38,456 nucleotides of DNA from a virus (IMGVR_UViG_3300045988_124250); one strand, 5' to 3'. Counted from the first letter of the stretch, positions 1 through 13,740 are shown. Numbers and translations are program-made. Notes: a model not told the origin generated them from the letters alone.

Positions 1-28
1 AAAAATGAAATGAAAAATGAAATGAAAA

Positions 29-412
29 ATGAAAAATGAATTCAGTTATGATGTATTAAAAAATAAATATGGTAAGAGAGTTGGCAATTATAAAGGTAGA
101 GATGTAATTGTTCGTTCAAAGTATGATGATTTGGGCGATAATGTTTACGTCTTATATGATTGTAATAACGCTTTCATTGTTGATGGCTATTGGATTGCGA
201 ATATCAGTGAAGATGGTAATTTAAATCGTAAATGGGAATCACCTTGGAAAAAGCAAAAACGGGCCTCGGCGGCGGCCAGGCCACTAGCGTGTCCTGAGGG
301 TGATGAGAGTGGCGAGAATGATATTAACCTTGATGTTGATACGTCTCTTGCTGATTCTCTTCTGGAATCGGCGTATAATGACATTTTGAGTGATTTGATG
401 TTTAAGGAATAA
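29..412 (+). CDS. hypothetical protein; only plus-strand gene in the left half, convergent with the early operons
   Basis: 127 aa ORF ending in TAA, immediately followed by a hairpin plus T9 terminator. Preceded by an AAAAATGAAATG tandem repeat. The start may lie upstream of the window. Confidence 0.4.
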   Translation: MKNEFSYDVLKNKYGKRVGNYKGRDVIVRSKYDDLGDNVYVLYDCNNAFIVDGYWIANISEDGNLNRKWESPWKKQKRASAAARPLACPEGDESGENDINLDVDTSLADSLLESAYNDILSDLMFKE

Positions 413-418
413 AAAAAA

Positions 419-450
419 TGGAGTGGCGATAAACCACTCCATTTTTTTTT
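419..450 (+). terminator. intrinsic terminator, possibly bidirectional
   Basis: tggagtgg-cgataaa-ccactcca stem-loop flanked by A8 on the left and T9 on the right, directly after the stop of 29..412. Confidence 0.7.
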
Positions 451-451
451 G

Positions 452-485
452 ACTTATGATGCTTTTTAACTTATGATGCTTTTTT
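452..485. repeat. 17 bp tandem direct repeat ACTTATGATGCTTTTTA x2
   Basis: Two perfect adjacent copies seen directly in the sequence. They sit in a ~300 bp AT-rich non-coding stretch (452-760). Confidence 0.8.
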
Positions 486-822
486 TTGAGTCCGAAGTCT
501 TTTGATTATTGTTTTATCTCCATAAAACTAGATTAAATAAACCTATTAGCGGGGTTTGATGAATATAGTTGTAAATAACGAATAATGAAACCTTATAATA
601 TTTTTTCTTAATAACAAAATGATTATGGTAGAATGATAAAAACTTTGAAAGAAAATGATGGAAGTTTGGTGCCCCCGCTCGGTACCAACTCATCACTCAA
701 TTTCATCGTTGTCGTCATCCTCTGAATTTTTCAAGATACCCTTTCTAAAAAACGTCGAGCCCAGGTATTCTAATCGCCAATTTCCCAAATGAAAAATACC
801 TGGGCCGACACGTTATTCGAAA

Positions 823-1197
823 TTAAATGCGAGAAATCCAGTCGTTGATGATTTCATCAACGGTTTTGCCCTTCTTGGTGGGCTTATCAGTTCTCGTCTC
901 AAAACGAAAACCGGGAATCTCAATCTTGAAATTGTGAGGGTCCTTATAGAACTTCAAGAAACTGTCCATTACCTTAATGACGTCCTCGCCCTTCAACTCT
1001 GCGCCCTTATAGCCGACATAGGCCGCATAGTCGTTGATAGCATCGGCAACCGCTTCCGCTCGGGCCATCTTTTCCTTGTCCTTCTTCTGGTCAGCATATG
1101 CCTTAGTGGCGTCATTCAGCATTGCAGTCATTTCCTTAGCAATATCCTCAGCGCTCTCGCCATTCATTAAGCGCGTCAGAATATCGTTCTTATTCAT
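823..1197 (-). CDS. hypothetical early protein (124 aa)
   Basis: ORF with an AAAGAGG Shine-Dalgarno 8 nt upstream of the ATG at 1197. Preceded by three tandem sigma70-like promoters. TAA stop. Confidence 0.6.
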   Translation of the reverse strand: MNKNDILTRLMNGESAEDIAKEMTAMLNDATKAYADQKKDKEKMARAEAVADAINDYAAYVGYKGAELKGEDVIKVMDSFLKFYKDPHNFKIEIPGFRFETRTDKPTKKGKTVDEIINDWISRI

Positions 1198-1229
1198 TAA
1201 AATAACCTCTTTTCATTTTGTATATACAT

Positions 1230-1258
1230 ATTATACAAAAAATTTTTTTAAAAGTCAA
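1230..1258 (-). promoter_or_regulatory. sigma70-like promoter TTGACT-N17-TATAAT (class with AAAAATTTTTTG spacer)
   Basis: Minus strand reads TTGACTtttaaaaaaattttttgTATAAT. The predicted start lies ~25 nt upstream of the SD of gene 823..1197. Confidence 0.6.
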
Positions 1259-1285
1259 GTGAGAAAAAAAATGGTTTTTTTTATC

Positions 1286-1314
1286 ATTATAACATAAATT
1301 TTTTTTTATGTCAA
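1286..1314 (-). promoter_or_regulatory. sigma70-like promoter TTGACA-N17-TATAAT
   Basis: Minus strand reads TTGACAtaaaaaaaaatttatgtTATAAT. Confidence 0.55.
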
Positions 1315-1469
1315 ACCGGGCGGTATATGGGTACCGAGCGGCGCTCGGTTTTGGGATTTTTGGGGCGCATATGAAGGCCGCTAGAATTACGGAAAATTTT
1401 CCATATGGGGGTACAGATCGGGAATTCGGACCGCAGCGCCCGCGCTCGGCCCGTTGTACCTCCCCTTTT

Positions 1470-1498
1470 AGTATACCACACCTGGCCCAATTTGTCAA
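1470..1498 (-). promoter_or_regulatory. sigma70-like promoter TTGACA-N17-TATACT preceding a 150 nt GC-rich leader
   Basis: Minus strand reads TTGACAaattgggccaggtgtggTATACT. It would transcribe the GC-rich palindromic segment 1320-1465. Confidence 0.5.
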
Positions 1499-1499
1499 T

Positions 1500-1543
1500 A
1501 GGCAAAATGAACAAAAATTAAGGGTGGATTTCTCCACCCTTAA
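1500..1543 (-). terminator. intrinsic terminator after the HD-domain gene
   Basis: Minus strand: stop TGA, then hairpin AAGGGTGGA-gaaa-TCCACCCTT, then AATTTTTGTTCATTTTG. Confidence 0.6.
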
Positions 1544-1545
1544 TT

Positions 1546-2154
1546 TCAATCCTCCCACGGCAGGTCGGGCGAAATTTCGTCCAGTTCCGCCTTGTCGTTA
1601 TAGTCAGCGGTGATTGCCGGAATGTCGATAAACGCTCGACTTGCCACATAGTCAGCCATGTGTACCAGTCTGTCGATAGGAGTGAAAGGTCTGTCCGCCT
1701 TGTTGGTAGTCCACTGACCCATGTGGGACTTGATGGCTTGTGTCAACTCATAGGGGCAGTCGCTCTCGAAAAAGACCAGCCACGAACGGCGTACTTGGTC
1801 AGCCGCCATTTCCCCGTGCTTGGGGTACAACTCCTTGTCGAACTCGTGTAAACCATACTTGGCTGTATCGTGGAGCAGACAGGCAACTCTTGCGTAGTCC
1901 TTGCGCTCGTCAGTGAGATACGCCCACTGGCTCATGCGGAGCAATTCCTCACAAAACCACGCGACCGCCTTAGTGTGGCGTACCAAACCGCCCTCGCCTT
2001 GACTCATAGCCGGATGGAACTTACCGGAAGAACTTGCGCCGATAGTCCAGAAATAGTCGGGAACGATACAGTCGAAGTAATAGCGCATGAATGAGCGCAA
2101 ATCCTCGGACTGAATGAACTCGATTTCGTGGTCAAAAAACTGGCTCTTATTCAT
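1546..2154 (-). CDS. HD-domain metal-dependent phosphohydrolase
   Basis: Contains ...ACLLHDTAKYGLHEF... (HD motif). Start chosen at the internal ATG 2154 with a GGAGG SD. The track ORF extends to 2304 but would overlap the promoter and hairpin. TGA stop. Confidence 0.6.
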   Translation of the reverse strand: MNKSQFFDHEIEFIQSEDLRSFMRYYFDCIVPDYFWTIGASSSGKFHPAMSQGEGGLVRHTKAVAWFCEELLRMSQWAYLTDERKDYARVACLLHDTAKYGLHEFDKELYPKHGEMAADQVRRSWLVFFESDCPYELTQAIKSHMGQWTTNKADRPFTPIDRLVHMADYVASRAFIDIPAITADYNDKAELDEISPDLPWED

Positions 2155-2280
2155 AGATGCCTCCGTGCTGTTGGTGGGTTCCAGCTCCCTCAGATTGTTT
2201 ATAGTATAGCGCATTTCGGGACAAAATGCAATAGTCAATTTATACAAACTTTCGCCGGAAAAATTGTTGAAAATGTGTAT

Positions 2281-2350
2281 TGACAAAAATGCCGGGCGCC
2301 ACATTCGTGAGCGCTCGACCCATTATACCACAGTCAGAGGGCGTTGTCAA
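2281..2350. promoter_or_regulatory. palindromic promoter-hairpin element (A-element, copy lacking the left TATAAT)
   Basis: ttgacaaaaatgcc-GGGCGCC-acattcgtga-GCGCTCG-acccATTATACCAca...tgtcaa. The minus strand carries TTGACA-N17-TATAATGGG reading into the hairpin. Confidence 0.55.
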
Positions 2351-2377
2351 TAGTCAAATTAAATAAAAAAATTGCTC

Positions 2378-2719
2378 TCAATCGAGAGCAATTTGGTAAG
2401 TTCGACGAATGGTAATTTCAACAGATTTCGGCTTCACAGGACACGCAAATCTGTCATTTCTCACAAACACGCCGTATCCCTTTTTCTGCCAGTTCTCACG
2501 ATTTTTGTCCTCGTATCGCAAAGTGTTATACTTGGAGAGCGGTAGCGAAAAATCGTAAATAAATTCAGAATTGCGCGGTAAACGGTGAACGGCGGTTTTG
2601 CGGTAGTTCCTCGTGTGTTCCTGTTGTCTGCGCTTTAAGTCGTTAGTCGTGCCTATTTTCAGAATGTAGACACCATTTTCATCATAATAGTGTCCAACAT
2701 ACAAAAATTCCTTGTTTTT
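2378..2719 (-). CDS. small standalone GIY-YIG domain protein
   Basis: ...NGVYILKIGTTNDLKRRQQEH... matches the GIY-(10)-YIG..N..KRR..H nuclease motif. The protein has no internal Met. The probable GTG start has a GAGGA SD; the track ORF uses TTG at 2776. Confidence 0.45.
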   Translation of the reverse strand, partial: KNKEFLYVGHYYDENGVYILKIGTTNDLKRRQQEHTRNYRKTAVHRLPRNSEFIYDFSLPLSKYNTLRYEDKNRENWQKKGYGVFVRNDRFACPVKPKSVEITIRRTYQIALD

Positions 2720-2772
2720 CACACTTTTTTCCTCGATTTCCGGGGAAAATGGGGGATTTCTCCCCCATTTTC

Positions 2773-3171
2773 TCAACTTTTCGGCTTGCGCTTCTGCACA
2801 AGCGTCAGTTCATAGGAATTTTCACCAACTGAAAACGCAATCTGTCTCTCTTTGTTGGTAATTTCCACATTTTCACAGGCATTTTCGCTGTTTTCGGTCA
2901 AAAATGTTGCCAATTCAGCGATAATAGCCGCTTTCGTGGGATTTGCCTTGCGCTCTCTCGTGGTGAATTTGTATGCGGTGGGGGTCTTGCGTGTGCCAGT
3001 CTTGGCGAATTTTTGAGCGATTTTGAGCTGTTCTTTCGACAGGTCAAAATCCTGTTTCTTGCCCTTGTCGATTTCTCGGTCAGAGTTCCACACGGCTTCC
3101 GCTTCATCGGCAGTCCAGCCCATTTTCGCCATAGCGTTTTTCAGCCATTCGGTTTTGGAAATGTCAGCCAT
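2773..3171 (-). CDS. hypothetical protein, paralog of 5319..5675
   Basis: Shares ...TPTAYKFTTRERKANPTK... with PTAYKFAPRERKANLTK in 5319..5675. TGA stop. Confidence 0.55.
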   Translation of the reverse strand: MADISKTEWLKNAMAKMGWTADEAEAVWNSDREIDKGKKQDFDLSKEQLKIAQKFAKTGTRKTPTAYKFTTRERKANPTKAAIIAELATFLTENSENACENVEITNKERQIAFSVGENSYELTLVQKRKPKS

Positions 3172-3232
3172 AAAACACCGCCTTTTCAGATTTTAGGGGA
3201 GAGAGGGGGAGAGGTTATCTCCCCCTCTTGTC

Positions 3233-3652
3233 TCACTTGGCGGTGAAATACGCCTTGCGCTTATCCTCGATACGCTCTGCCAGACCGTCAATGACCATCT
3301 GACGCACCAGAGAGGAAACCTTCTGATTGGACGCATCGGCGATAGCGGGGACAGACTTCATCAGAGCGGAGACGGTGTACTTCTCGCCCTTGTGGGCGTC
3401 CAGGAACGCCTTGATGTCAGCCTTGATACCCTCGTTTGCCAGCTGGGTGGCGGTGGGCTTCTTGTCCACGGTGTTCTTGCGGTCGAGCAGTTCCAGCTCG
3501 TGGTTCAGGAAGCCCGCCACATCAGCACCGGAAACCTTGACAGTGGCATCGCCCTTGGGAATGTCATAAGTGGCGTCCATATCCACCTTGGACAGAATGG
3601 CGGTGAAGTAGTCGCGCTTGGTCAGGCGCACAGAGGAAGTAGTGTTAGTCAT
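3233..3652 (-). CDS. hypothetical protein, paralog of 5729..6109
   Basis: C-terminus ...SNQKVSSLVRQMVIDGLAERIEDKRKAYF matches SNQKLSSLVRQMVLDKQVERVEDKRKAFF. Start MTNTTSS with the conserved AAAGGGTTGATACT-ATG initiation region. Confidence 0.6.
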   Translation of the reverse strand: MTNTTSSVRLTKRDYFTAILSKVDMDATYDIPKGDATVKVSGADVAGFLNHELELLDRKNTVDKKPTATQLANEGIKADIKAFLDAHKGEKYTVSALMKSVPAIADASNQKVSSLVRQMVIDGLAERIEDKRKAYFTAK

Positions 3653-3720
3653 AGTATCAACCCTTTCTGCGTTTTTAGGTGTCGCCCACCATATTGTTGT
3701 TTCCCTCTTGGAACATCTAT

Positions 3721-3749
3721 ATTCTAACACATATCCGAAGCCTTGTCAA
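3721..3749 (-). promoter_or_regulatory. sigma70-like promoter TTGACA-N17-TAGAAT
   Basis: Minus strand TTGACA at 3749-3744 and TAGAAT at 3726-3721, proximal to gene 3233..3652. Confidence 0.5.
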
Positions 3750-3916
3750 GACTTTTTTTCGGATTTGTGGAATTTTTTTAAGGTACACGCCCCGCCGGAA
3801 GGTCTTACCCTCTCCCTTGGAACAATTATATATTACCACACCCTTGGGCAAATTACAATAGTCAATACTCACAAAAAATGGGATTTTCAACATCTAAAAT
3901 TTGTGCAAAAAAACAC

Positions 3917-4011
3917 TTGACAAAATTTGTGCCGCGTGGTATAATGGAAATTTCGGGCGCCACGTTCGTGAGCGCCCGACCCATTATACCACATTTGAGC
4001 GCATTTGTCAA
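3917..4011. promoter_or_regulatory. 95 bp perfect-architecture A-element: convergent TTGACA-N17-TATAATGG promoters on both strands around a 7 bp GC hairpin
   Basis: Plus: TTGACA(3917)-17-TATAAT(3940)-GG-aaatttc-CGGGCGC-cacgttcgtga-GCGCCCG-accc-ATTATA(3983)-17-TGTCAA(4006). The whole unit is an extended inverted repeat. Confidence 0.65.
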
Positions 4012-4017
4012 TAGGCA

Positions 4018-4058
4018 AAATACACAAAAATAAACCAGCGTAGTTGGCTACTACGCTG
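4018..4058 (-). terminator. intrinsic terminator
   Basis: Minus strand hairpin AACCAGCGTAGT-agcc-AACTACGCTGGTT followed by TATTTTTGTGTATTTTG. Confidence 0.6.
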
Positions 4059-4384
4059 GTTCCCCTGTTGATGTTCGCCAGCCGTCCGGACAGCCAGCCC
4101 ACTTCTACACAGCAGACCCAAAACCGGGGCGCAAAGCCCATTATGGAGGGGTCTTTCTCGGCACGCGGTGAATGTGGTTAGAACTTCGTACCCAGTCCCA
4201 ATTTCTAACGAGAGGTTCAAGATGGCGGTTGAGAAGAAATTATTGAGTGGGACAAACACTCTATTAAACTCCATCTTGGCTGGGGCATAAATATAATCAA
4301 TCATTAAACTATCTAATCAAACAATGATTGACTACTAAGGTGGTCGATACAATCGCCATTTCATTTTTCTCACCTCACAATGTT

Positions 4385-4420
4385 AGTATAGCACAGGCGG
4401 AGCGGTTTGTCAAGAGTTTT
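4385..4420 (-). promoter_or_regulatory. sigma70-like promoter TTGACA-N17-TATACT flanked by CTCTTGACA inverted repeat
   Basis: Minus strand reads ctcTTGACAaaccgctccgcctgtgcTATACT. It heads a ~330 nt minus-strand transcript (4388 to 4060) with no credible ORF. Confidence 0.5.
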
Positions 4421-4422
4421 TT

Positions 4423-5103
4423 TCAAAATTCTAACTCGTCCTGAACGCCATAGCCAGAGAAATCGAGGATAACAGGAGAAATGCCAATGTATCCAATGTT
4501 TGAGCCGTGGAGGTCGTTTATGTGATACTTCTTGACGAACTCACAGAGGGCGATAACCTTGCGCTTACCGTAGAGGGAAACGGCGACTTTTGCCCACAAT
4601 CCATCGAGGTCGCGCCCATAGCCATTTTGGTCTGCCTTGCGGAACTGTCGCTCAATCTGATTAACTCGGCAGTCAGGAACAGTCTTTGCGATACGGACGA
4701 GACGCCCTTGCAGTCCGCCCTCTGCCCAGCAGATTTTATGAGCACTGTTAGTAATAATCTGTTGAGCAGTGAACGCAATCGCTTCACCATCACGAGGGGA
4801 GACAATGTAGCCAGCCAACATAGTGGCGGGGAAAAAATCGGCGAGGTTGGCGTCTACGGCTTTCTGATACACAGCCACTTCCCGCTCTGCGTCCCGCGTC
4901 TCCATAGACCATTTGAGAACATAGCCCAATTCAGGGAACACCAGACATTCCTTGGTCGCACCGTTGCTGGTGACTATCTTGACATTAGGATATTCGTTGT
5001 GAATAACGCGACACAAATCGTCAGCGCACTTGACCAGTCTCGGCTTTTCAGATACCGCCTGCTGAATGGTCAGGATAAAATCCTGAACTCTCGGAAACTC
5101 CAT
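4423..5103 (-). CDS. hypothetical early protein (226 aa)
   Basis: AAGGAG SD 8 nt before the ATG at 5103. TGA stop. No motif recognised. Confidence 0.6.
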   Translation of the reverse strand: MEFPRVQDFILTIQQAVSEKPRLVKCADDLCRVIHNEYPNVKIVTSNGATKECLVFPELGYVLKWSMETRDAEREVAVYQKAVDANLADFFPATMLAGYIVSPRDGEAIAFTAQQIITNSAHKICWAEGGLQGRLVRIAKTVPDCRVNQIERQFRKADQNGYGRDLDGLWAKVAVSLYGKRKVIALCEFVKKYHINDLHGSNIGYIGISPVILDFSGYGVQDELEF

Positions 5104-5179
5104 CGTTCATCGCTCCTTTCAGTATCATCATTATAACACATTACAGGAGAATTACAATAGGTAAAATGCACAAAATTTT

Positions 5180-5276
5180 GCGGAAAAAATTTCTGAAATT
5201 GTATAATGTGCCGAAAACCGGGTGCCAGGACCGTAAGCGCCCGGCCGATTATACCACACGCGCTCTGATTTGTCAA
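5180..5276. promoter_or_regulatory. A-element copy
   Basis: TATAAT(5202)...CCGGGTGCC-aggaccgtaa-GCGCCCGG...ATTATA(5248)-17-TGTCAA(5271). The minus-strand promoter drives 4423..5103. Confidence 0.55.
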
Positions 5277-5318
5277 TAGGTAAAAATGCATAAAAAAAAT
5301 GAGGGAGATTTCTCTCCC

Positions 5319-5675
5319 TCACTTGCGCGGACACGACAGCACAACCTTGTATTTTGTTCCATCAAGCGTGAATAAAAATTCGCGCTCCGCGTTGCTCATG
5401 TTCAGGTCAGTCGCGCCGTATGTGGTCAGTGTCTCGGTCAGCAAGGTGATAATGCCCTGCTTCGTGAGATTAGCCTTTCTTTCTCTTGGTGCGAACTTGT
5501 ATGCGGTCGGCTGGCGTCCTACTCCACGCGCTTTCTTGCTTGCCTTTTCCTGTTCCTCGGTCAGCGGAAACGGATTGCCGCCCTTGTCGATAATAGCATC
5601 TTGGACAATAATATCCTTGGCTTCGGCTTCGGTGCAATCCAGCTTTCGCATAAGGTCGGCAATACGCTCATTCAT
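5319..5675 (-). CDS. hypothetical protein, paralog of 2773..3171
   Basis: Start MNERIADL with an AAGGAG SD. TGA stop. Confidence 0.55.
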   Translation of the reverse strand: MNERIADLMRKLDCTEAEAKDIIVQDAIIDKGGNPFPLTEEQEKASKKARGVGRQPTAYKFAPRERKANLTKQGIITLLTETLTTYGATDLNMSNAEREFLFTLDGTKYKVVLSCPRK

Positions 5676-5728
5676 GCGCTTACTCCTTTCGGGGATAGGG
5701 TGGGGATTTCTCCCCACCCTTGGGCGGT

Positions 5729-6109
5729 TTACTCGCTCACCTTGCGGAAGAACGCCTTGCGCTTATCCTCCACGCGCTCCACCTGCTTGTCCAGCACCAT
5801 CTGCCGAACGAGGGAGGACAGCTTCTGATTGCTCATGTCCTTGCAGACGGGGAACTCTTTGAGCATCTCGCTGATGGAATACAGGCGGTCGCGCTCCATA
5901 GCGGACAGGACAGTGGTCTTGATGACCTCATTCTCCTGCTGGGTCTTGGTGGGCTTCTTGTCCACGGTGTTCTTGCGGTCGAGCAGGTCGATTTCGTGGG
6001 TGATGAACTCCACCAGCTTGGGGTCAGCCTTAACCTCGGACAGTTTCAGCAGGGCGGTGAAATTGTCGCGCTTGGTGGGCTTGCGGGTGGTGGTGTTAGT
6101 GTTAGCCAT
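5729..6109 (-). CDS. hypothetical protein, paralog of 3233..3652
   Basis: Start MANTNTTT with the AAAGGAATTGATACT-ATG initiation region. TAA stop. Confidence 0.6.
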   Translation of the reverse strand: MANTNTTTRKPTKRDNFTALLKLSEVKADPKLVEFITHEIDLLDRKNTVDKKPTKTQQENEVIKTTVLSAMERDRLYSISEMLKEFPVCKDMSNQKLSSLVRQMVLDKQVERVEDKRKAFFRKVSE

Positions 6110-6149
6110 AGTATCAATTCCTTTCTCCATTTGGTTTTGAGGGCTTTGC

Positions 6150-6750
6150 CCTCCTGACATTATCTATTATAACAGCTTGCGCTGGGATTGTCAAGAGTTT
6201 TTTTCAAAATTCTTGATTTTTTTTGATAGTGCCAACAGGGGAACGCTCCACAAGTATTCACAACGACTTACTGCCCCGACCTGACGGATAAAGTCTTGCC
6301 GTGTTATTGCGTCGCAGTCCGGTTAGAGGTTCCGGTCTGTCCCTTGCTCACATCATGCTCATTTTCCGTTCAACGTATGGCCTTACCGCGCTGGTGTAGG
6401 GCCTACTTCCTTTACTTTCGCACGGTTCGCGACCCGCGGATTTCTTGGGTGGGGCTGTTCCCCTCTTGACATTATCAATTATAACACAGGTGCTGGGGAT
6501 TGTCAAGAGGTTTTTTGAAATTTTTTCAAATTTCTGAAACCTGTCTACATAGGTGACACATTAGACGCATCTGCCGTGCCATTCCCCTCTTGACATTATC
6601 CATTATAGCACAGGTGCTTGGGATTGTCAAGAGGGAAAATGCGGGTCAGTTACCGAGTTATCACACCCGCCAGCGTGGCTCTTGCGAGGCGACTTGCTGT
6701 TCCCTCTTGACATTATGTAGTATAACACAGGTAGGCATGGATTACAATAG
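6150..6750 (-). repeat. array of four tandem ~50 bp promoter repeats (CTCTTGACA-N29-TGTCAAGAG inverted-repeat units) with ORF-free spacers
   Basis: Units lie at ~6150-6200, 6455-6512, 6585-6640 and 6700-6750. Each reads on the minus strand as ctcTTGACA-atccc(a/c)agcacctgtg(t/c)-TATAAT; the last copy is degenerate. No ORF of 60 aa or more on either strand between 6160 and 6945. Confidence 0.6.
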
Positions 6751-6805
6751 GTAAACTATACAAGTTTCGGGAAAAATAAATAAAAAAATTTGTGCAAAAA
6801 AACTC

Positions 6806-6900
6806 TTGACAAAATTGCTGACGGGGTGTATAATGGTGAATTCCGGCCGAGACGCGCGAAATCGGCCGGCCATTATACCACACCCAGGCGCATTTGTCAA
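6806..6900. promoter_or_regulatory. A-element copy with a different hairpin sequence but the same architecture
   Basis: TTGACA(6806)-17-TATAAT(6829)-GG-...CCGGCCGA-gacgcgcgaaa-TCGGCCGG...ATTATA(6872)-17-TGTCAA(6895). The stem sequence differs from A3, so the stem-loop is maintained as structure rather than as primary sequence. Confidence 0.6.
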
Positions 6901-6945
6901 TAGGTAAAAATGCATAAAAAATGAGGGGAAAATCCCCTCATTTTT

Positions 6946-7479
6946 TTAGTCTATCTGACAAGCGAGAAATGCGTCCCGCTTTTCGTTCAGGTTTGCGATT
7001 TCGCCCGCCAGCGCGTCAGCCCTCATAGCCAACAGACGCCCATAGCCCTTGCGCCAGTTCAGCATACCAGCGGGATTGACCGTGTAAATAAGCTTCTCCT
7101 TTTCCACGGTCTTGGTGTCCTTGCGCTCAACGCGGAAGTCCTGACCATTCAGAGCCAGCAGAGCGGACTGTGCCACTTCCGGCAAACGCATCCAGTTGTA
7201 CTCGGTCATCAGGGCGTTGCCATTCTTGTCAATCATCCAGCTTTCCGCGTCCCACGGGTCGAGCTTGATTTCCTTGGTGGTCTGTTCGGTGCGTACCACC
7301 TTAATGATACCCTCGTCCCGCAGGAACGACAGGGAATTGTAGGTGTACCGCCGGTAGTCGTGCTTTGCTTTGGAGAAGTCCTCGGAAGTGAACTCCTTGT
7401 TTCCGAACAGGTCTACCAGCCATTTGTAGGTCTTGACCGTGCGGTTGAAATTTCTGAGGTTAGCATAGCGAGCTTTCAT
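6946..7479 (-). CDS. hypothetical early protein
   Basis: Start MKARYANLRNF with a GAAAAGGAG SD. TAA stop. Confidence 0.55.
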   Translation of the reverse strand: MKARYANLRNFNRTVKTYKWLVDLFGNKEFTSEDFSKAKHDYRRYTYNSLSFLRDEGIIKVVRTEQTTKEIKLDPWDAESWMIDKNGNALMTEYNWMRLPEVAQSALLALNGQDFRVERKDTKTVEKEKLIYTVNPAGMLNWRKGYGRLLAMRADALAGEIANLNEKRDAFLACQID

Positions 7480-7592
7480 AGTTTTTTCTCCTTTTCTATT
7501 GGTGGGGCTTACCATCGTTTCCCCTACCTTGAATTTGTAATGTTATTATAGCATGGAATGGGGGCGTTGTCAACCCCCATTCCAAACTTTTT

Positions 7593-7808
7593 TTACGGGG
7601 TGTCGTGCTTGCGGTATTCAGTCAGGTCAGGGTCGCCAATCCATTCGGAAAAATCAACCCAATAGTCGAACACATGGAGAATTTCGATTTCATCAGGTTC
7701 AAACACCCCGCCACAACAGGCGCAGATTACAAAACCGTTTTCAAGCTGAATACCAGCTTGAACACCATCGGAATGGTCGCCCTTAAAAAGCACTTGCTTA
7801 ATAGGCAT
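7593..7808 (-). CDS. small Cys-containing protein (71 aa)
   Basis: AAGGAGG SD. Contains ICACCGGVFEP. Confidence 0.5.
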   Translation of the reverse strand: MPIKQVLFKGDHSDGVQAGIQLENGFVICACCGGVFEPDEIEILHVFDYWVDFSEWIGDPDLTEYRKHDTP

Positions 7809-7875
7809 TTCGCTTACCTCCTTGTCTTAGTATAGCCATTATACCACATGAGAAAGGGGCTGTCAAGCCCCAATC

Positions 7876-8532
7876 TCAAAACTTGGGAAAACATTTTACC
7901 TCAAAGGGCGCGTCCCATGCGTGGACATTCTTGGTGTATCGCTTGTGCATCTTCTGACAGGCAAGGAAAATTTCCATTTCCTGCATAGCGTCAGACAGGG
8001 CGGTGTGTTCTTCCTCAAAGTCAGGATTGCCGTGGAGATAACCATACACCGCTTCGACAGAGGTTGCACAGGTCTTGCCATTCTTGGAACGCTTGCCATG
8101 TTCTCGGCAGTATTCCGCGTAGGATTTCTTGTGGGTGATAGTTTCCAGTGCCATGAGATACAGGTCGATGAACTCGAAAGTGTCCAGCAGGTCGCGGAAA
8201 CAGGTCTTGCAGAAGTCAAAACCGGAATTGTACGCCATCACATAGCGAACGCCGTAATGGTCGCACAGGTTTTTGATTACCTCATAGGCTTCGCGCTCCG
8301 TGGCGATAGCGGAGATTTCGCCAGCTTTGAGCCGTTCGGCATACTTGGGAAAATTCTTCTTGGCATAGCCATCGGTGGCGATTTCGTCATAATGCTCCAT
8401 CACCAGCAGGGAAGTGGTGGCAAGGATTTCGCCCTTGCGGTCGTGGATAATCGCGCCCACATTATACATTCCCGTGGGGTGAGCCGCGCCGCCTACCGTT
8501 TCAGTGTCCAGCGTGCAGTAGATATTTTTCAT
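7876..8532 (-). CDS. DEDDy-type 3'-5' exonuclease (DnaQ-like)
   Basis: Exo I LDTETVG, Exo II MAYNSGFDF and Exo III YLHGNPDFEEEHTALSDA motifs. AAAGGAG SD. TGA stop. Confidence 0.7.
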   Translation of the reverse strand: MKNIYCTLDTETVGGAAHPTGMYNVGAIIHDRKGEILATTSLLVMEHYDEIATDGYAKKNFPKYAERLKAGEISAIATEREAYEVIKNLCDHYGVRYVMAYNSGFDFCKTCFRDLLDTFEFIDLYLMALETITHKKSYAEYCREHGKRSKNGKTCATSVEAVYGYLHGNPDFEEEHTALSDAMQEMEIFLACQKMHKRYTKNVHAWDAPFEVKCFPKF

Positions 8533-8645
8533 TGTTCATTCTCCTTTTCTCTTGGTTGGGCTTACCATCGTGTCCCATACCTTAATTACATTACATATTA
8601 TAGCAAATAGGGGCGAGATTGTCAACCCCTATTTGCTATTTTTTT

Positions 8646-9092
8646 TTACAGGTTTCGCAGGATTTCCATAAGCAGGTCGGCATTATATGCCATATTGTGG
8701 GTGTTTGCCGTCCACTCGTTGAGATTGCGCTGTTCATCATCGAACAGAATAGACGCGGGGCAGGTGGCGCAGGTGGATTTGGGGACGCCATAGGGGACAA
8801 TATGGATTTCGTCCCACTGAACGCTGGGGAGATGCTTTGCCAGCCAGTCGCGCTTGACCTCGGCAACCTCGGCATTGAACTTATCCGTTCCGCTCTTGGA
8901 CAGCCAGCTGATGATGCCGATATTGTAGCCCCGCGCCTGTAAGCGGTTCAGATAGCGGGCGAGGGTGGAGAGGTTCACAAGGGGCTTTGCCACACGATAT
9001 GGTGTGCTGTCCTGTGCTTCGAGGCACTCCAACCAGTTGGGGACGCCGTAAAAATCAATCACCGTCCCATCGAGATCGAGGTAAATAGTCAT
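8646..9092 (-). CDS. HAD-superfamily phosphatase, possibly a 5'(3')-deoxyribonucleotidase
   Basis: N-terminal YLDLDGTV (DxDGT) and later FDDEQRN (DD motif). GAAGGAG SD. TAA stop. Confidence 0.6.
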   Translation of the reverse strand: MTIYLDLDGTVIDFYGVPNWLECLEAQDSTPYRVAKPLVNLSTLARYLNRLQARGYNIGIISWLSKSGTDKFNAEVAEVKRDWLAKHLPSVQWDEIHIVPYGVPKSTCATCPASILFDDEQRNLNEWTANTHNMAYNADLLMEILRNL

Positions 9093-9156
9093 ACTTTTTG
9101 TCTCCTTCGTTTTATTGTATTTACATTATAACGCCTATTCTCCTATTTGTCAAGAG

Positions 9157-9900
9157 TTATTTTACAAATTCCCAAAATAATTTTTCACCCGTATCAGGGT
9201 CTACTCCCGCGCTTTTACGCTCTCCTTTCAAACATTTACTAATGTTGCTTTGTGGAACGCCATAGTATCGAGCCGCCGCTGATTGAGACTCAAATACACG
9301 ATTAGTAGTTAAACAAATTACTGCTTTACTATTAGCAATACTTCCAGCCTTTCGCCATTCATTTACTTGTGCTTGGTGCTCTTCTGGATGTTCTTGTTGC
9401 CATTTTTCTTTTGCCTGATTTAATCTTATTACTTGTTGTTTAACGAGTTCAGGATTTTCTTTTAATCGCTTATGACTTGCTTCTAACATTGGCTTAATAC
9501 ATTTTTCTTTGTATTCTTCTGGATGAGTATCACACCATTTCCGCAAATGTTCCCCATTTCGTTTATACATGGCTTGCGCTTCTTCTGGATGTTGTTCCAG
9601 CCATCTTTGACAACTGCGCCAGCCGTCTCCACCTGTGCCACCTTCCGCATTATTATAAAAATTATCATCATTTACTGCGTTGTATAATTGGATGTATTCT
9701 CGTTCTTTTGCGTCGGCTTCTTCTCTTGTTTCACAAAAACACAAAACACTTTTAGTAAAATTCTCCTTGCCATACTTGCTAATTGCTTTTAGTATAGTTG
9801 TTCCACTACCTAAATAGTTATCGTCTGGGCGTCCTTTGTGCTATCCAATGTATTGTTTGCCGTTAATTTTATTTGTTGTTATGTAAACGTAATAGTCCAT
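9157..9900 (-). mobile_element. freestanding GIY-YIG homing endonuclease gene (Seg/I-TevI-like) containing an in-frame TAG at 9841-9843
   Basis: MDYYVYITTNKINGKQYIG-(TAG)-HKGRPDDNYLGSG... followed by a C-terminal NUMOD-like AVICLTTNRVFESQSAAARYYGVPQSNISKCLKG. The gene is AT-rich (~35% GC) inside ~50% GC DNA and has its own TTGACA-N17-TATAAT promoter at 9936-9964. Confidence 0.6.
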
Positions 9901-10032
9901 TTTTAGACCATCCTTCCATCTATGTCATTGATATTATTATACAAAAAATTTTTAGAATTGTCAAATTTTCGTTGGTTATTTCGCACAAACTTTCGGGATG
10001 CGCACTTGGTCAAATTTGTTCAATTTACCTAT

Positions 10033-10126
10033 TGACAAAATTGCTGGCAGGGTGTATAATGGAAATTTCGAGCGCCAGGGCCGTGGGCGCTCGGCCGAGT
10101 ATAGCACAAATAGGGGCGTTTGTCAA
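10033..10126. promoter_or_regulatory. A-element copy
   Basis: TTGACA(10033)-16-TATAAT(10055)-GG-aaatttc-GAGCGCC-agggccgtg-GGCGCTC-...AGTATA-17-TGTCAA(10121). Confidence 0.55.
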
Positions 10127-10177
10127 TAGGTAAAATGAACAAAAAAAATCTCCCAAATTTGGGAGATTTTTCAATTA

Positions 10178-10384
10178 TTACTTCTTGACAGTGATGCTGA
10201 AAATAGAGCGTAGGAGTGCGATAATGAGCCAAATGACCAACGCCAGTTTCCACGAAAACACGATGGCGATAGAGCCGATGGACGCGATGCCAATCATAGG
10301 GAGAAGCCAGCAGAGAAGCCAGACCAGCCCAGCAGTAAACAGGAACGAAATGCCAAGGGCAATAACCATTATCAGAATAGTAAT
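10178..10384 (-). CDS. small two-TM membrane protein
   Basis: MITILIMVIALGISF... with an AGAGAGGTG SD. TAA stop. Confidence 0.45.
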   Translation of the reverse strand: MTILIMVIALGISFLFTAGLVWLLCWLLPMIGIASIGSIAIVFSWKLALVIWLIIALLRSIFSITVKK

Positions 10385-10388
10385 CATT

Positions 10389-10586
10389 TTATTCACCTCT
10401 CTTAAATACGATGGTTTTGTGTGTGGTAAAGGTTGCTCCACGAACAAGCGGGTCATTTGCCAGGTCATTTGCGATGAACGACAGAGTTTCGTTTTCGTCC
10501 TTGAACCACTCGCTATTAGTGAAGCGTTCGCCCCAAGTGGTTATGCCCCACCACTCAACATTGTAGTACACATCTTTGATTTCCAT
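10389..10586 (-). CDS. hypothetical small protein (65 aa)
   Basis: MEIKDVYYNVEWWG... with an AAGGAGG SD. Confidence 0.5.
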   Translation of the reverse strand: MEIKDVYYNVEWWGITTWGERFTNSEWFKDENETLSFIANDLANDPLVRGATFTTHKTIVFKRGE

Positions 10587-10599
10587 TGTCGCGCCCTCC

Positions 10600-10749
10600 T
10601 TAGTAGATTTGTTCGCCGTTATGGTAGCGTTCGTATCTCGCTTCAAGGAAGTCGAGAATGAACTCGAAGTCGTCCGCGTCCGCGGGGTCTACGAACGTCT
10701 TTTCAAGGATTTCGCCAGTGTGGTCATTGAAAACTTTAATCATTTCCAT
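10600..10749 (-). CDS. hypothetical small acidic protein (~49 aa)
   Basis: MEMIKVFNDH... with a GGGAGG SD. Confidence 0.4.
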   Translation of the reverse strand: MEMIKVFNDHTGEILEKTFVDPADADDFEFILDFLEARYERYHNGEQIY

Positions 10750-10815
10750 TTTGTTGTCCTCCCTTATTTGATGATACCATTCTAACACAGAGGGGCTGAT
10801 TTGTCAACCTCTATT

Positions 10816-11295
10816 TTACAGATTTTTGCTTTCTGCTACGAAATATTTTGCGCCATACTGCGCCACAATGTCCTTGACCTTTTTGCTCTCGGCTTGCGTG
10901 GCACAATAGAAATTGAATAACGTGTGTTTGTTGCTAATCTCAATGTATGAGTGGGGAATGTCTCGCAGGTCAAAATCAACAGCGGCACGATACTTTGTGG
11001 GGACAGTCATTTCAATCTTCCACAATTTTTCCTTGCGCGCCAACTCCTCCACCCATTTGACCGCCAGCACGCCGATGAAATTACAGGCGGCGGTAATGCC
11101 CATCTTTGCCAGCGTAGAAACGCCGTCAATGTTGGTCAGGATAATGACATAGGAATAGAAGCCATAGGTCAGCGCATTGATACCAGCGGCTACCCACTTA
11201 TTGCCTTTAACAGTCAAAATGGATTTGATGGTGGACAGCACCACATTCACAGCGGTACAGATAATGAATAGAATAATTGCGTTCATAGTCATCAA
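10816..11295 (-). CDS. membrane protein with 3 N-terminal TM helices plus a soluble domain
   Basis: 159 aa with a GGGGAGGA SD. No motif recognised. Confidence 0.55.
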   Translation of the reverse strand: MMTMNAIILFIICTAVNVVLSTIKSILTVKGNKWVAAGINALTYGFYSYVIILTNIDGVSTLAKMGITAACNFIGVLAVKWVEELARKEKLWKIEMTVPTKYRAAVDFDLRDIPHSYIEISNKHTLFNFYCATQAESKKVKDIVAQYGAKYFVAESKNL

Positions 11296-11492
11296 TCCTC
11301 CCCGAACATAGCTTCCGCCAACCAGTACATAGATGTGCGCAGGTGAGACTGGATTTCAAACAAATCATCACTCAAATTTTGAGCGGCTTGCTTGTCCTCG
11401 CTGTTGGACAGGTTTTTCTTTTCTGCGGCGATTTCGATTGACAGTTGCTCCAACTCATTAGCAACTTGTTTCAGCTTAGAGGGGATGTTCAT
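11292..11492 (-). CDS. hypothetical coiled-coil protein (66 aa)
   Basis: Start MNIPSKLKQ with the conserved AAAGGAATTGATACT-ATG region. TTGACA-N17-TATTAT promoter at 11524-11552. Confidence 0.5.
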   Translation of the reverse strand: MNIPSKLKQVANELEQLSIEIAAEKKNLSNSEDKQAAQNLSDDLFEIQSHLRTSMYWLAEAMFGED

Positions 11493-11638
11493 AGTATCAA
11501 TTCCTTTCTTAATTTCTATTATAATAATAACACATTTATTTGAAAATGTCAAGAAAAATTTTTGCCGTAGTTAAATTCTCACAGGATTAGTTTTTTGTTC
11601 CGTGTAGTTAGTCAGAACTAAACCTGACAAGAGGGGCG

Positions 11639-12010
11639 TTAATGCCCCTCCGTCAGTTTGTTATACATACTCCATAAGGTATCACAGGAATTGTTTGTGT
11701 TTTCAGCCATCCATACAATTTGTTCATCAGTCGGCAGGTATTTATCATCTTGAAAACCAAACCATCTATCACAGGATTGGTATGCCTTATACTCGTCCTC
11801 TGTCAGCTTGCCACGCAACCGCCAATCCCAGCGGATAGAACTTATCAGAGTATACGCGCATGCGCCCGCGATAGTCAGGGTCAGAATGGCGACAGCCGCA
11901 TACAGCACGAATGTGGATTTGAACATACCATACACCAGCAGGATAAAACCACACAGAATGAGGAAATTGCGCGCCCATTTTTTGAGCGTCAGTTTCTGAA
12001 AATCAGACAT
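11639..12010 (-). CDS. membrane protein (2 TM)
   Basis: AAGGAG SD. The C-terminal domain is paralogous to 12025..12201. Confidence 0.55.
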   Translation of the reverse strand: MSDFQKLTLKKWARNFLILCGFILLVYGMFKSTFVLYAAVAILTLTIAGACAYTLISSIRWDWRLRGKLTEDEYKAYQSCDRWFGFQDDKYLPTDEQIVWMAENTNNSCDTLWSMYNKLTEGH

Positions 12011-12024
12011 TGTTCTTACTCCTT

Positions 12025-12201
12025 TCAGTTTAGTCTGTCAAACAGATTCCACAGCGTTTCAGTGGAAATGGACGTTTCATCCATCATTTCGCGGATTTGC
12101 TCCTCGGTGGATAGGTATTTTTCATTTCGCCAGAGAATAGAGCGGATAATCGCCCACGCGCACCCGCCTACGGCGATTAGTGCCAATACAATATTAAACA
12201 C
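12025..12201 (-). CDS. small membrane protein, truncated paralog of 11639..12010 (GTG start)
   Basis: VFNIVLALIAVGGCAWAIIRSILWRNEKYLSTEEQIREMMDETSISTETLWNLFDRLN compared with ...LPTDEQIVWMAENTNNSCDTLWSMYNKL. AGGAG SD. Not present in the ORF track. Confidence 0.4.
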   Translation of the reverse strand: MFNIVLALIAVGGCAWAIIRSILWRNEKYLSTEEQIREMMDETSISTETLWNLFDRLN

Positions 12202-12412
12202 TTTCTCTACTCCTTAACATATTGTCAGTAAATTCATTAGAGAACTTCTCGGCAAAATCATCATCATAGGCGCGATTGGCGATTACCTCCATAACCGTCT
12301 CAATGCCGGACATAAAGTAGGGATTGCCATTGATGGCGTCATACCGCCCGTGGAACATAGGGCATTCACGCAGGTCTGCGAAAACCGCCTGATACGCTTG
12401 CTTTAAATCCAT
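12194..12412 (-). CDS. hypothetical protein (72 aa)
   Basis: AAGGAGG SD. Proximal TTGACT-N17-TACAAT promoter. Confidence 0.55.
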   Translation of the reverse strand: MDLKQAYQAVFADLRECPMFHGRYDAINGNPYFMSGIETVMEVIANRAYDDDFAEKFSNEFTDNMLRSRESV

Positions 12413-12518
12413 AATACATACCTCCTTGTTTCAGTATAGCCATTGTACTACATTACGGGATAGAAGTCAATCGTCAAAATGCACAAAATTGCGGCGAAAA
12501 ATTTGTGAAGTATACCTA

Positions 12519-12570
12519 TTGACAAAAATGCCGGGCGCCACATTCGTGAGCGCGCGGCCGAAAATGTCAA
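12519..12570. promoter_or_regulatory. truncated A-element (hairpin between TTGACA and TGTCAA, no -10 copies)
   Basis: TTGACAaaaatgCCGGGCGCCacattcgtgaGCGCGCGGccgaaaaTGTCAA. Confidence 0.4.
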
Positions 12571-12626
12571 GTGGAAAATTATACAAAAATTGGGCTGGAT
12601 TTTTGTTCATCCAGCCCAAATGATTT

Positions 12627-12875
12627 TTATTCCTTTCCAAAAATAAAATCCGGTTTGAAAATGTAGAGGAATGCTACGGCGTAATGAAAAATCGGAATGA
12701 TTGAGCCGGTGATAACGGTCAACCAGTTAGAGAACGGACTGCGCTTGCTTTCACCCCGGTTCTTGAATACTTCTTGCGCCTGTTCCTTGTTTTTCTTCAT
12801 AGTCGAAATGATGCTTGCGATACCCAGCCAGTAGAGAACAATACCAATGATGTAAATAATGAGAATGATTTTCAT
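12627..12875 (-). CDS. small membrane protein (82 aa)
   Basis: AAAGGAG SD. Two hydrophobic segments. Confidence 0.55.
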   Translation of the reverse strand: MKIILIIYIIGIVLYWLGIASIISTMKKNKEQAQEVFKNRGESKRSPFSNWLTVITGSIIPIFHYAVAFLYIFKPDFIFGKE

Positions 12876-12899
12876 AAGTGTATCTCCTTTTTATTTGAT

Positions 12900-13106
12900 T
12901 TACTTTCCCGATTTCGGAACGAAGCCACGGCAATACTGGCTTGCCCACGTCCAGTCTTTCATTCTCTTGGTGCATCGGCTCTCACACTGAGAGTTCAGCA
13001 CCTTACCGCAGTTATAGCCCCAGTATTGACAGTGATAACAGCAGACATTGCGGATTTCTAAATTGTAGCGGTTCGCCAGTTCCTCTCGAATTTCAAATGC
13101 GGTCAT
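12900..13106 (-). CDS. Cys-rich small protein (68 aa), possibly a zinc finger
   Basis: CCYHCQYWGYNCG...CESRC. AAGGAGG SD. Confidence 0.5.
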   Translation of the reverse strand: MTAFEIREELANRYNLEIRNVCCYHCQYWGYNCGKVLNSQCESRCTKRMKDWTWASQYCRGFVPKSGK

Positions 13107-13196
13107 TGTTTTTACCTCCTTGTTTCATTGTCTACATTATACCATACCTACTGGTTGTTGTCAATAAAAAAATGTGGAATTTCTCCCACATTTTTT

Positions 13197-13424
13197 TTAT
13201 TTACCGATTTCCACTTTTTCAGTGGGGGCAAGCATTTGAAGCACATTAGCCGTAAGCGCGACATCTACTCTGTCATAGGTATTCCCGCAAGTATCGCCCA
13301 CATAGTCGCAGTCATTATCGGCGATAACGTCATACAATTCATTCAGAATGTCATAGGCGTCGCGCAGGGTTTTCCGCTCTTTCTCTGTCATTTTGACATA
13401 AATGGGGGCTTTAATAACTTCCAT
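13197..13424 (-). CDS. hypothetical protein, tandem paralog of 13439..13669
   Basis: MEVIKAPIYVKMTEKERKTLRDAYDILNELYD..NDCDYVG. Confidence 0.55.
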   Translation of the reverse strand: MEVIKAPIYVKMTEKERKTLRDAYDILNELYDVIADNDCDYVGDTCGNTYDRVDVALTANVLQMLAPTEKVEIGK

Positions 13425-13438
13425 TTTGTTTTCCTCCC

Positions 13439-13669: not shown

Positions 13670-13740
13670 TTTGGTATTCTCCTTTCTTTTGGTATTATCT
13701 ATTATAGCAGAAATGGGGCTTGTTGTCAAGCCCCAATTTT

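Follow-up and report, generated by a model that had tools for sequence, protein, structure and literature searches.

In phage T7, the first early genes are preceded by the tandem strong early promoters A1, A2 and A3, which are of the host type and share one orientation. RNase III cleaves stems on either side of rRNAs and of early RNAs of T7 or SP82, and the pRNA of phi29 is an early phage RNA whose ends are paired in one helix and whose loops are able to pair between molecules. In the host-takeover module of SPO1, the early genes are small and numerous, and a strong promoter and a terminator belong to each of them (PMC6873191). In T4-like phages, genes are shuffled by the PeSL (promoter-early stem-loop) cassettes, each built of an early promoter of the sigma-70 type with an AT-rich tract upstream and of a stem-loop (Arbiol et al. 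2010, PMC2839356; Comeau et al. 2014, PMC4122927). Finally, the 5' stem-loop of the aprE leader and the STAB-SD of cryIIIA stabilise mRNAs of Firmicutes, according to references 106 and 109 as they are cited in PMC3997798.

In uncultured gut phages, annotation of the early region yields rows of hypothetical proteins, while non-coding products are ignored. Here, we examined such a region in a stretch of viral DNA of 38,456 nucleotides (IMGVR_UViG_3300045988_124250), called the window throughout. Its first 18 kb are read leftward and hold small ORFs, mostly without a database match, together with about 35 near-perfect minus-strand TTGACA-N17-TATAAT sites, most of which have a TG extended -10. 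Perfect 12/12 sites number 16 in the first 12 kb, and 54 promoter-like sites were observed in the window versus 18.4 expected from shuffles. The early transcription units comprise one or two genes each, with terminators between the units. Judged from its sequence, this layout is that of an early region read by the host polymerase. GenBank contains a single relative, phAss-1. This uncultured gut phage belongs to the code-15 clade and is predicted to infect Clostridia; its match, the only one among GenBank phages, covers 140 nt and corresponds to the face-to-face promoter module described below. The close relatives come from IMG/VR and from human-gut metagenomes, as contigs of 130-200 kb. We consider it somewhat probable that the region studied here is an array of promoter-plus-RNA cassettes, and that it lies in the early part, read by the host polymerase, of the genome of a large virulent phage that infects gut Firmicutes.

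The pattern CTCTTGACA-N17-TATAAT-N6-TGTCAAGAG, for which no match is expected by chance, was found at 6463-6509, at 6587-6633 and, with one mismatch, at 6151-6197, all on the minus strand. In all three matches the promoter has 12/12 hexamers and a TG extended -10. They contain promoter B (6602-6630), promoter C (6478-6506) and promoter D (6166-6194), the last of which adjoins the gene at 5729-6109. Promoter D lies at -85 relative to the start codon in every relative and is the sole promoter common to all of them; upstream of it, an A-rich, UP-element-like stretch (6195-6229, minus strand) is shared with the promoter at 4385-4413 (family D2). A fourth repeat copy, at 6703-6750, lacks an upstream arm (CCTATTGTAA) and keeps the downstream arm alone. 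Its minus-strand promoter (6719-6747), the first of the cassette array, is a degenerate TTGTAA-N17-TATACT with a TG before the -10, and its place is kept in the relatives, some of which have TACAAT. The copies (family D4) are separated, start to start, by 312, 124 and 117 nt. Among 40 distinct promoter copies, the extended -10 TG and the hexamers are fixed and the 17-nt spacer occurs in 22 forms, which is the pattern expected of working promoters. Promoter activity, like the transcript start and end points given below, is predicted from these elements.

A preliminary description of this locus had listed four tandem repeats, 70-300 bp apart, each with a minus-strand TTGACA-N17-TATAAT. It holds in the main and was confirmed in part: the spacing is as described and three copies are perfect, whereas the fourth matches the consensus at only 9 of 12 positions. 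A fifth copy had been placed at 4385-4420, where the sequence 4385-4413 carries the upstream half of the repeat. The count of promoters was incomplete, a perfect minus-strand promoter at 6872-6900 and a plus-strand one at 6806-6834 having been overlooked, as had a two-way terminator at 6916-6946 and a candidate plus-strand RNA of about 108 nt.

The same description had each promoter embedded in an inverted repeat. Comparison of the copies leads to another view: on the sequence evidence, the arms bracket the transcribed spacer and not the promoter. The predicted transcript start UGUCAAGAGG pairs with the end of the spacer, CCUCUUGACA, and this end usually is the -35 of the next promoter. In folds that include the next -35, the bases just after the promoter, UGUCAAGAGGG, pair with the stretch ending in the next TTGACA. 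Because UGUCAAG always follows the -10 at a distance of 5-6 nt, the 5' end of the RNA would be located at the foot of this closing helix. In every array, the promoter that comes first carries a downstream arm and lacks the upstream one. Among 204 promoters with a downstream arm, an upstream CTC was found in 35 of the 44 that follow a cassette versus 15 of the 160 that are first or solitary, and CTC precedes the -35 in 76% of the promoters after a cassette versus 12% of other promoter-like sites. The CTC tracks the preceding cassette, and the reading in which the arms bracket the promoter was rejected on these counts; the promoter looks embedded in an inverted repeat because the cassettes stand in tandem. 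Furthermore, the complementarity of the arms beyond 10 bp was above that of all 200 partner shuffles, and the closing helix of cassette a has an A-U pair in four sequences and a G-C pair in four others. The 3' arm of cassette c, which holds no promoter, has drifted (CUGUUGGCA; CCCCUGUUGGCA), with pairing kept through G-U. One 10-nt sequence appears to double as a DNA promoter element and as a strand of an RNA helix.

The motif TTGACA-N17-TAYAAT-N5-6-TGTCAAGAGG, with its 26 specified bases, was found in at least 117 IMG/VR stretches. Among the matches listed, 107 were distinct; in 50 of these, a 3' arm of the CCTCTTGACA type lies within 330 nt, and the spacers inside these 50 listed instances are unrelated to one another. 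Only 5 of the 107 distinct instances listed have an ORF directly after the motif, and in several of the remaining ones UGUCAAGAGG begins ordinary mRNA leaders that have no 3' arm. As far as these matches indicate, a large group of phages generally shares the conserved transcript start, and the helix-closed cassette is one recurrent use of it. We also observed that UGUCAAGAGG is conserved as a sequence, beyond what is needed of a mere pairing partner. It may have a role of its own, either in the DNA, as an operator or in promoter escape, or as a stabiliser resembling a Shine-Dalgarno sequence.

The gene-free stretch measures about 830 bases (6110-6945). As the preliminary description had stated, no ORF that has a start codon reaches 60 aa on any strand between 6160 and 6945, where the longest has 57 aa. 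Since phAss-1 is a code-15 phage in which TAG is recoded, the frames were also read through TAG, TGA or TAA. Nothing above about 94 aa is confined to the region or spans it, and the longer stop-to-stop frames under recoding all extend into the flanking genes; hidden coding by stop-codon recoding was ruled out, as nothing convincing opens. The only small frame in cassettes a and b, one of 19 codons in cassette b, was likewise rejected as a gene, because its ATG is lost, being ACG in most relatives. The non-coding modules are 93-100% identical to the window where the third codon positions of the flanking genes are only 70-85% identical.

With Rfam 15, no match was obtained in the whole window at gathering scores (6S RNA, tRNA and tmRNA included) and nothing was seen on the minus strand of 6110-6800 even at E values up to 10; E-value searches of 6000-7000 and 3950-4450 gave only chance matches driven by terminators. 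A search of the window for tRNA and tmRNA found none, and the Rfam and tRNA checks that had been advised for the spacer region and for the 4060-4420 unit gave no known RNA family. A 6S-like RNA was considered and discarded, since no model matched and the predicted shape is branched and not a rod with a central bubble. In the literature, a search for the 10-mers returned only unrelated shRNA and primer matches.

The best supported of the putative RNAs is that of cassette c (6230-6471, minus strand, 242 nt), which was delimited by comparison of relatives and belongs to a structured RNA family. Its closing helix, of 19-21 bp with bulges, joins 6449-6471 to 6230-6252. It is followed by hairpin P2 at 6418-6440, whose loop GUCGCGAA (6426-6433) contains a GC palindrome, then by helices P3-P6 and by a variable apical domain. 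The homologues, found by a pattern search and then with nhmmer, comprise 21 distinct versions, including a mini form of 139 nt in which the apical domain is missing (L016, L017, L021-L023) and intermediate forms (L116, L054, L122 and others). In L112, a cassette c of 200 nt, with its promoter, forms one stand-alone unit without an ORF, between a terminator and its own hairpin with a T5 run; the latter was seen by eye and was not called in the terminator scan.

Ten distinct close homologues gave a consensus of 59 pairs, 9 of which show compensatory change, and 12 diverse long forms share 47 pairs, with 96% of the cells paired. Compensatory change concerned 12 pairs versus 1-3 in slid controls and was reached in 0 of 500 shuffles. 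The sequences behind this covariation are few, mosaic and related, and the comparison with the slid controls is tilted towards the structure, which was derived from the same alignment. In the pair table, about 35 G-U cells stand against about 10 A-C cells. As G-U is far above A-C, the RNA strand would be the minus strand, that is, the one transcribed from the promoters. Both compensatory change and strand asymmetry, the general marks of a structured non-coding RNA, are found in cassette c. The evidence for its structure is comparative; the fold of the single sequence is unremarkable (z = -1.47).

The stem of P2 occurs as eight or nine different sequences, all of them paired. Its loop includes, in every case, a self-complementary tetramer or hexamer made of G and C alone (CGCG, GCGC, GGCC or GCGCGC), which suggests a loop-loop pairing between molecules. 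Beside this palindromic loop, cassette c has conserved unpaired segments. No match to its motif was found in 185,579 bacterial and archaeal species genomes. Among phages, it is shared by relatives so distant that the shared protein is only 40-48% identical, and in these it lies upstream of unrelated genes; in L042, L043, L044 and L047 it is absent and the downstream gene is kept. Because the downstream genes differ and these four close relatives keep the gene without it, cassette c is most likely an independent module, acting apart from the downstream gene. We regard it as a candidate structured RNA family with no Rfam entry. The interval 6230-6450 had been proposed as a minus-strand non-coding RNA, with 55% GC (54.3% by computation) and a structured sequence. 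Covariation, conservation above that of synonymous sites and recurrence before different genes argue for such an RNA, and the relatives support its structure.

A bolder reading, which we put forward tentatively and do not rate as probable, is that a large group of uncultured gut phages has mobile "RNA-gene cassettes", in which a helix-closed non-coding RNA would start at the +1 of a host-type early promoter and its closing strand would serve again as the next -35. Cassette c would then be a trans-acting early RNA that may dimerise through the GC palindrome of the P2 loop, and during takeover it could capture a host factor in the manner of a decoy or sponge.

Cassette a (6625-6712, minus strand) would give an RNA of 88 nt with 31 pairs and two internal hairpins, in which the 5' arm UGUCAAGAGGGAA pairs with the 3' arm UUCCCUCUUGACA, the latter including the -35 of the next promoter. 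Cassette b (6501-6595, minus strand; 95 nt) has three internal hairpins, and its 5' arm UGUCAAGAGG pairs with CCUCUUGACA, that is, with the -35 of promoter C. Each of the two shows one compensatory change, from U-A to C-G in cassette b. They are 93-97% identical across the relatives, and when folded without the next -35 they are unremarkable (z = +0.66 for a, -1.9 for b). These data are suggestive, and not strong, for cassettes a and b being helix-closed domains like cassette c.

The intergenic region was aligned with 4 IMG/VR relatives and then with 14 metagenome relatives. The number of promoters with the inverted repeat ranges from one to four in these genomes, and their spacers fall into no fewer than six types without relation to one another (a, b, c, e, f and g). 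Every indel between relatives starts and stops in a promoter repeat, and the 17-nt spacers of the promoters are re-paired with different cassettes. Cassettes are duplicated, lost and exchanged between relatives, and we propose, from these alignments, that this occurs by homologous recombination between promoter repeats. Recombination of this kind, known in T4-like phages for small genes, would also shuffle RNA modules in an unrelated lineage that infects Firmicutes.

Elsewhere in the window, an ORF-less unit with a 9-codon mini-ORF had been described at 4060-4420. This is borne out by the relatives, in which 4012-4440 is non-coding and the mini-ORF is kept; a 98-aa ORF at 4008-4304 was rejected, as it is broken by 1-nt indels in relatives. 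By eye, a further unit at 1320-1465 shows a GGGGAGGUACA/UGUACCCCC stem in its spacer of about 150 nt, after which come two more promoters.

The first ORF met by all the predicted transcripts of the array is the gene at 5729-6109 (minus strand). Its 126-aa product has about 200 homologues, all unannotated, and no match in Pfam or PHROG. It is modelled with a pLDDT of 84 as an N-terminal helical part and a winged helix in the C-terminal 70 residues or so. The nearest folds by Foldseek are the MecI, MarR, ArsR and PadR repressors (probability 1.0, with a weak E value of 7e-3 and a TM score of 0.4-0.45). A paralog of 165 aa is located at 3233-3730 (families D8 and D9), with a related promoter at 3721-3749. 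The leader of the 126-aa gene (6110-6159, minus strand) opens like the cassette transcripts, with UGUCAGGAGGG, and folds locally near its 5' end into the hairpin GAGGGC-AAA-GCCCUC (6139-6153), after which the Shine-Dalgarno sequence GGAGAAAGGA comes; it is 96-100% conserved versus 72-97% for third codon positions. With the strong promoter D directly before the gene, the upstream promoters would not be needed for its expression. Some database proteins of 143 aa begin at an ATG that lies inside promoter D, a gene-caller start that can be corrected.

At the other end of the region, the intrinsic terminator AAAAAATGAGGGGAAAATCCCCTCATTTTTTT (6916-6946) is bidirectional, with a stem of 14 bp, a T run on the minus strand and, on the plus strand, another at 6941-6947. 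It terminates the upstream minus-strand gene 6946-7515 and could do the same for a plus-strand RNA. Next to it, the minus-strand promoter at 6872-6900 is a 12/12 TTGACA-N17-TATAAT with a TG and with CCTA before it. It is faced by the perfect plus-strand promoter at 6806-6834, which is invariant in 5 relatives and whose module is the one found in phAss-1, and a GC-rich hairpin, CCGGCCGA..TCGGCCGG (6843-6869), lies between the two. About 8 such modules occur in the window; the stems of the paralogous hairpins differ and all stay paired, two of them with G-U on the plus strand only. The candidate plus-strand RNA of about 108 nt (6840-6947; fold z = -4.5), whose ends are deduced from the promoter and terminator positions, would consist of a 5' hairpin, a stretch antisense to the promoter 6872-6900 and the terminator hairpin.

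In the mechanism that we propose for the array, a cassette would comprise a near-consensus promoter of the sigma-A type with an extended -10, from which the transcript would begin, within 1-2 bases, at UGUCAAGAGG. A non-coding spacer of 60-220 nt ending in CCUCUUGACA would follow, and pairing of the two ends would give a helix-closed domain; in the small cassettes, the 3' strand of this helix would double as the next promoter's -35. No minus-strand terminator-like site was found between 6110 and 6916. Because the array has no internal terminator, the four or five promoters would give nested transcripts that run through the later cassettes, the gene 5729-6109 and the ORF 5319-5717 and share their 3' end at the terminator 5297-5324. 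The cassettes of the window have their own promoters and no terminators of their own. In this respect, the earlier interpretation was supported in part: non-coding RNAs made from stacked promoters that feed 5729-6109 agree with our data, whereas its layout of promoter-to-terminator units needs correcting at this locus. Every transcript would have its 5' end in or next to a helix, formed with a distant partner in a, b and c and, a few bases further on, as a local hairpin in the gene leader, and such 5'-end helices are expected to guard RNA from 5'-end decay in Firmicutes. Protection of the 5' end would be the most economical role for the conserved transcript start. Discrete RNAs would have to be released from the nested transcripts by processing, and stabilisation, processing and any function in trans are read here from the architecture of the array.

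The same architecture might be explained by stacked tandem promoters with a long modular 5' leader, whose spacers would be cis-only mRNA stabilisers (5' helices, AAGAGG) that raise early gene expression. There are indeed no terminators between the units, all of which are co-oriented with the gene and read into it. In addition, the UGUCAAGAGG start is also present on ordinary mRNA leaders, 5' hairpins are general in the early leaders of this phage (for instance in repeat D14 at 7474-7530 and 8527-8583), and 5' stem-loops and STAB-SD are established Bacillus stabilisers in the works cited as references 106 and 109 in PMC3997798. We nevertheless consider this explanation rather unlikely, since in all relatives a short stabilised leader is already provided by promoter D, 85 nt ahead of the start codon, and since cassette c recurs before unrelated genes and once stands alone; its conserved unpaired segments and palindromic loop would be needless in a mere stabiliser. 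It is improbable, in turn, that the arms are DNA operators, in which TGTCAAGAGG at +1 to +10 and the inverted copy at the -35 would be bound by a phage protein, for instance the winged-helix product of 5729-6109 or of its paralog 3233-3730, so as to shut off or autoregulate the early promoters. The modelled winged helix of the downstream gene, which resembles the MecI, MarR and ArsR repressors, would suit this role, as would the paralog with its related promoter and the invariance of the 10-nt sequence in distant phages, also at promoters without a 3' arm. However, the second half-site follows the preceding spacer and not the promoter, and the half-sites are 38 bp apart, on different helix faces. 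The fold match is weak (E = 7e-3) and silent on the target sequence. Moreover, the arms covary beyond the core, with G-U pairing where the 3' arm holds no promoter, which is a signature of RNA. This RNA-type covariation argues that a protein-binding site is not the sole role of the conserved 10-mer.

Two further explanations deny the spacers a function as RNA. If they were decaying remnants of small ORFan cassettes, functionless now that their coding parts had been deleted by promoter-repeat recombination, it would be understandable that cassettes come and go between close relatives and that AAGAGGGGAA resembles a leftover ribosome binding site; a similar AAGAGGGAAAC, about 7 nt before an ATG just downstream of the 3721-3749 promoter, may be a functional one, and PeSL recombination in T4-like phages deletes ORFans in this way. 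Such decay is highly improbable for spacers that are more conserved than the synonymous sites of the neighbouring genes and that show compensatory changes, and for a cassette c conserved across phages whose shared protein is only 40-48% identical. Transcripts prime replication or open the DNA at the T7 and T4 origins and in ColE1, with its RNA II and RNA I. Here, an ORF-free, promoter-dense region with A/T-rich tracts, in which an antisense promoter faces a sense promoter, could be seen as a transcription-activated origin or another DNA-level element, whose promoters or stable transcripts would prime or open the DNA. We give this next to no credence: the face-to-face module occurs about 8 times in the window and is not specific to the locus, the cassettes are dispensable in relatives, the G-U-dependent pairing speaks for a function as RNA, and neither iterons nor other origin features were found, the GC skew showing no local feature.

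The promoter-plus-RNA cassette array thus described contributes a candidate structured RNA family with comparative support, a compact promoter/helix design, shuffled RNA modules and the correction of a gene caller, and the claims made for it are open to direct testing by metatranscriptomes or synthetic constructs. With regard to phi29 pRNA, it shares structured RNAs of 100-250 nt with paired ends and with loops that may pair between molecules, which would be made from a strong early promoter of the host type. It has no sequence or Rfam relation to pRNA, however, and is found in an unrelated type of phage (contigs of 130-200 kb), with no packaging context. Like the stems cut by RNase III, the flanks of cassette c pair, over 19-21 bp with bulges (about two turns), within a longer read-through transcript, whereas the closing helices of cassettes a and b, of 10-17 bp, are short for this enzyme. 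As in the aprE leader and with STAB-SD, a helix or an AAGAGG purine run lies a few bases from the predicted 5' end, in a Gram-positive setting; in contrast to them, the partner strand may be 60-230 nt away and coincides with a promoter element.

The layout of the early region resembles the host-takeover module of SPO1. However, the promoters of T7 and SPO1 are not known to have conserved structured RNAs between them or a common transcript start that pairs with the next -35. The likeness to PeSL cassettes is found in the repeated composite motifs, dense in a plastic region of small genes of unknown function, which hold a strong sigma-70-type early promoter and an AT-rich upstream tract (here, 12/12 hexamers with TG and A-rich tracts). 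In the distant relative L112, a palindrome, an AT tract and a promoter precede each small gene. Furthermore, when close relatives are compared, insertions, deletions and replacements start and stop at the motifs, which points to homologous recombination between motif copies. Unlike PeSL, the array belongs to another phage lineage and host phylum, and its cargo is non-coding RNA where that of PeSL is an ORFan; excised mini-circles are a further mark of PeSL. The PeSL stem-loop is local, within or next to the promoter, and serves as a terminator or attenuator, whereas the stem described here would span the cargo from the transcript start to the cargo end and, having no U tract, is no terminator. 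By analogy with these systems, the array is best described as PeSL-like shuffling joined to tandem early promoters and to a putative cargo of non-coding RNA.

A recurrent module of face-to-face promoters was found in the window, in the order plus-strand consensus promoter, GC hairpin, minus-strand consensus promoter and terminator. Copies lie at 2255-2400, 3905-4070, 5180-5330, 6795-6955, 10020-10180, 14350-14520 and 15368-15540, and another is present in the phAss-1 phage (L027, 5010-5165). From copy to copy, the stem sequences of the hairpin vary and the pairing is kept throughout; in two copies, G-U pairs form on the plus strand only. The complete hairpin would be contained in plus-strand transcripts only, which suggests that these modules either specify antisense RNAs of ~105-115 nt that form one family, or act as a transcriptional insulator.

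Pairing under sequence variation was also observed in cassette c, the candidate structured RNA on the minus strand at 6230-6471. The loop of its P2 hairpin (6418-6440) always carries a GC-only palindrome (CGCG, GCGC, GGCC or GCGCGC), which persists while stem and loop sequences vary among homologues including L017, L045, L054, L112 and L167. Such a loop is compatible with kissing-loop dimerisation of the cassette c RNA.

A second non-coding unit, unrelated to the 6110-6945 array, occupies 4012-4440 on the minus strand and includes a promoter at 4385-4413 and a terminator at 4032-4062. Downstream of the promoter comes a mini-ORF of 9 codons (MKWRLYRPP-stop), conserved and with a good Shine-Dalgarno sequence; its peptide is left intact by synonymous changes in the relatives L043 and L033. 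Within the ~300 nt separating this mini-ORF from the terminator, a block of 75 nt is almost invariant and a hairpin shows compensatory change. Most relatives carry frameshifts in the overlapping 98-aa ORF (4008-4304), and the unit has no match in Rfam. By analogy, the Pro-Pro-stop end of the peptide recalls ribosome-arrest leader peptides.

Two other early genes share a conserved 5' leader motif, AAGGUAGGGGAAACGAUGGUAAGCCCCACC..AAAGGAG..AUG (7474-7530 and 8527-8583), another 5'-proximal hairpin directly after a consensus promoter, which is also present in the distant relative L054 (390-430). At 1320-1498, a minus-strand promoter (1470-1498) precedes a GC-rich, ORF-less spacer of ~150 nt with the stem GGGGAGGUACA/UGUACCCCC, and two further consensus promoters (1286-1314 and 1230-1258) follow before the gene starting at 1197.

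The winged-helix genes 3233-3730 and 5729-6109 are paralogs, with two blocks, of 85 nt and 98 nt, that are 76-81% identical at the DNA level; related promoters precede both, and the 165-aa paralog has an extra N-terminal insert. Several 143-aa database proteins (including P0001, P0005 and P0007) begin at the ATG of GATAATGTCAGG (6160), which lies inside promoter D and before the point at which transcription is predicted to start. The likely product is the version of 126 aa from 6109, which has a proper ribosome binding site.

Base composition shifts sharply between 1-18000 and 19000-38456: GC is 44-51% across most of the leftward early region, against values of 27-42%, most of them near 30%, for the rightward part, with a switch of transcription direction near 18.2-20.4 kb. 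An ORF related to homing endonucleases (9157-9744; I-HmuI-like NUMOD domain, PHROG 314) sits among the early genes, where the surrounding kilobase is locally AT-rich.

In the distant relative L112 (5880-7910), the palindrome TTTAGACGAAnTTCGTCTAAA, an AT tract and a consensus promoter stand upstream of every small early gene. Their combination is a textbook PeSL-like (promoter-early stem-loop) composite motif, and its carrier is not a T4-like phage.
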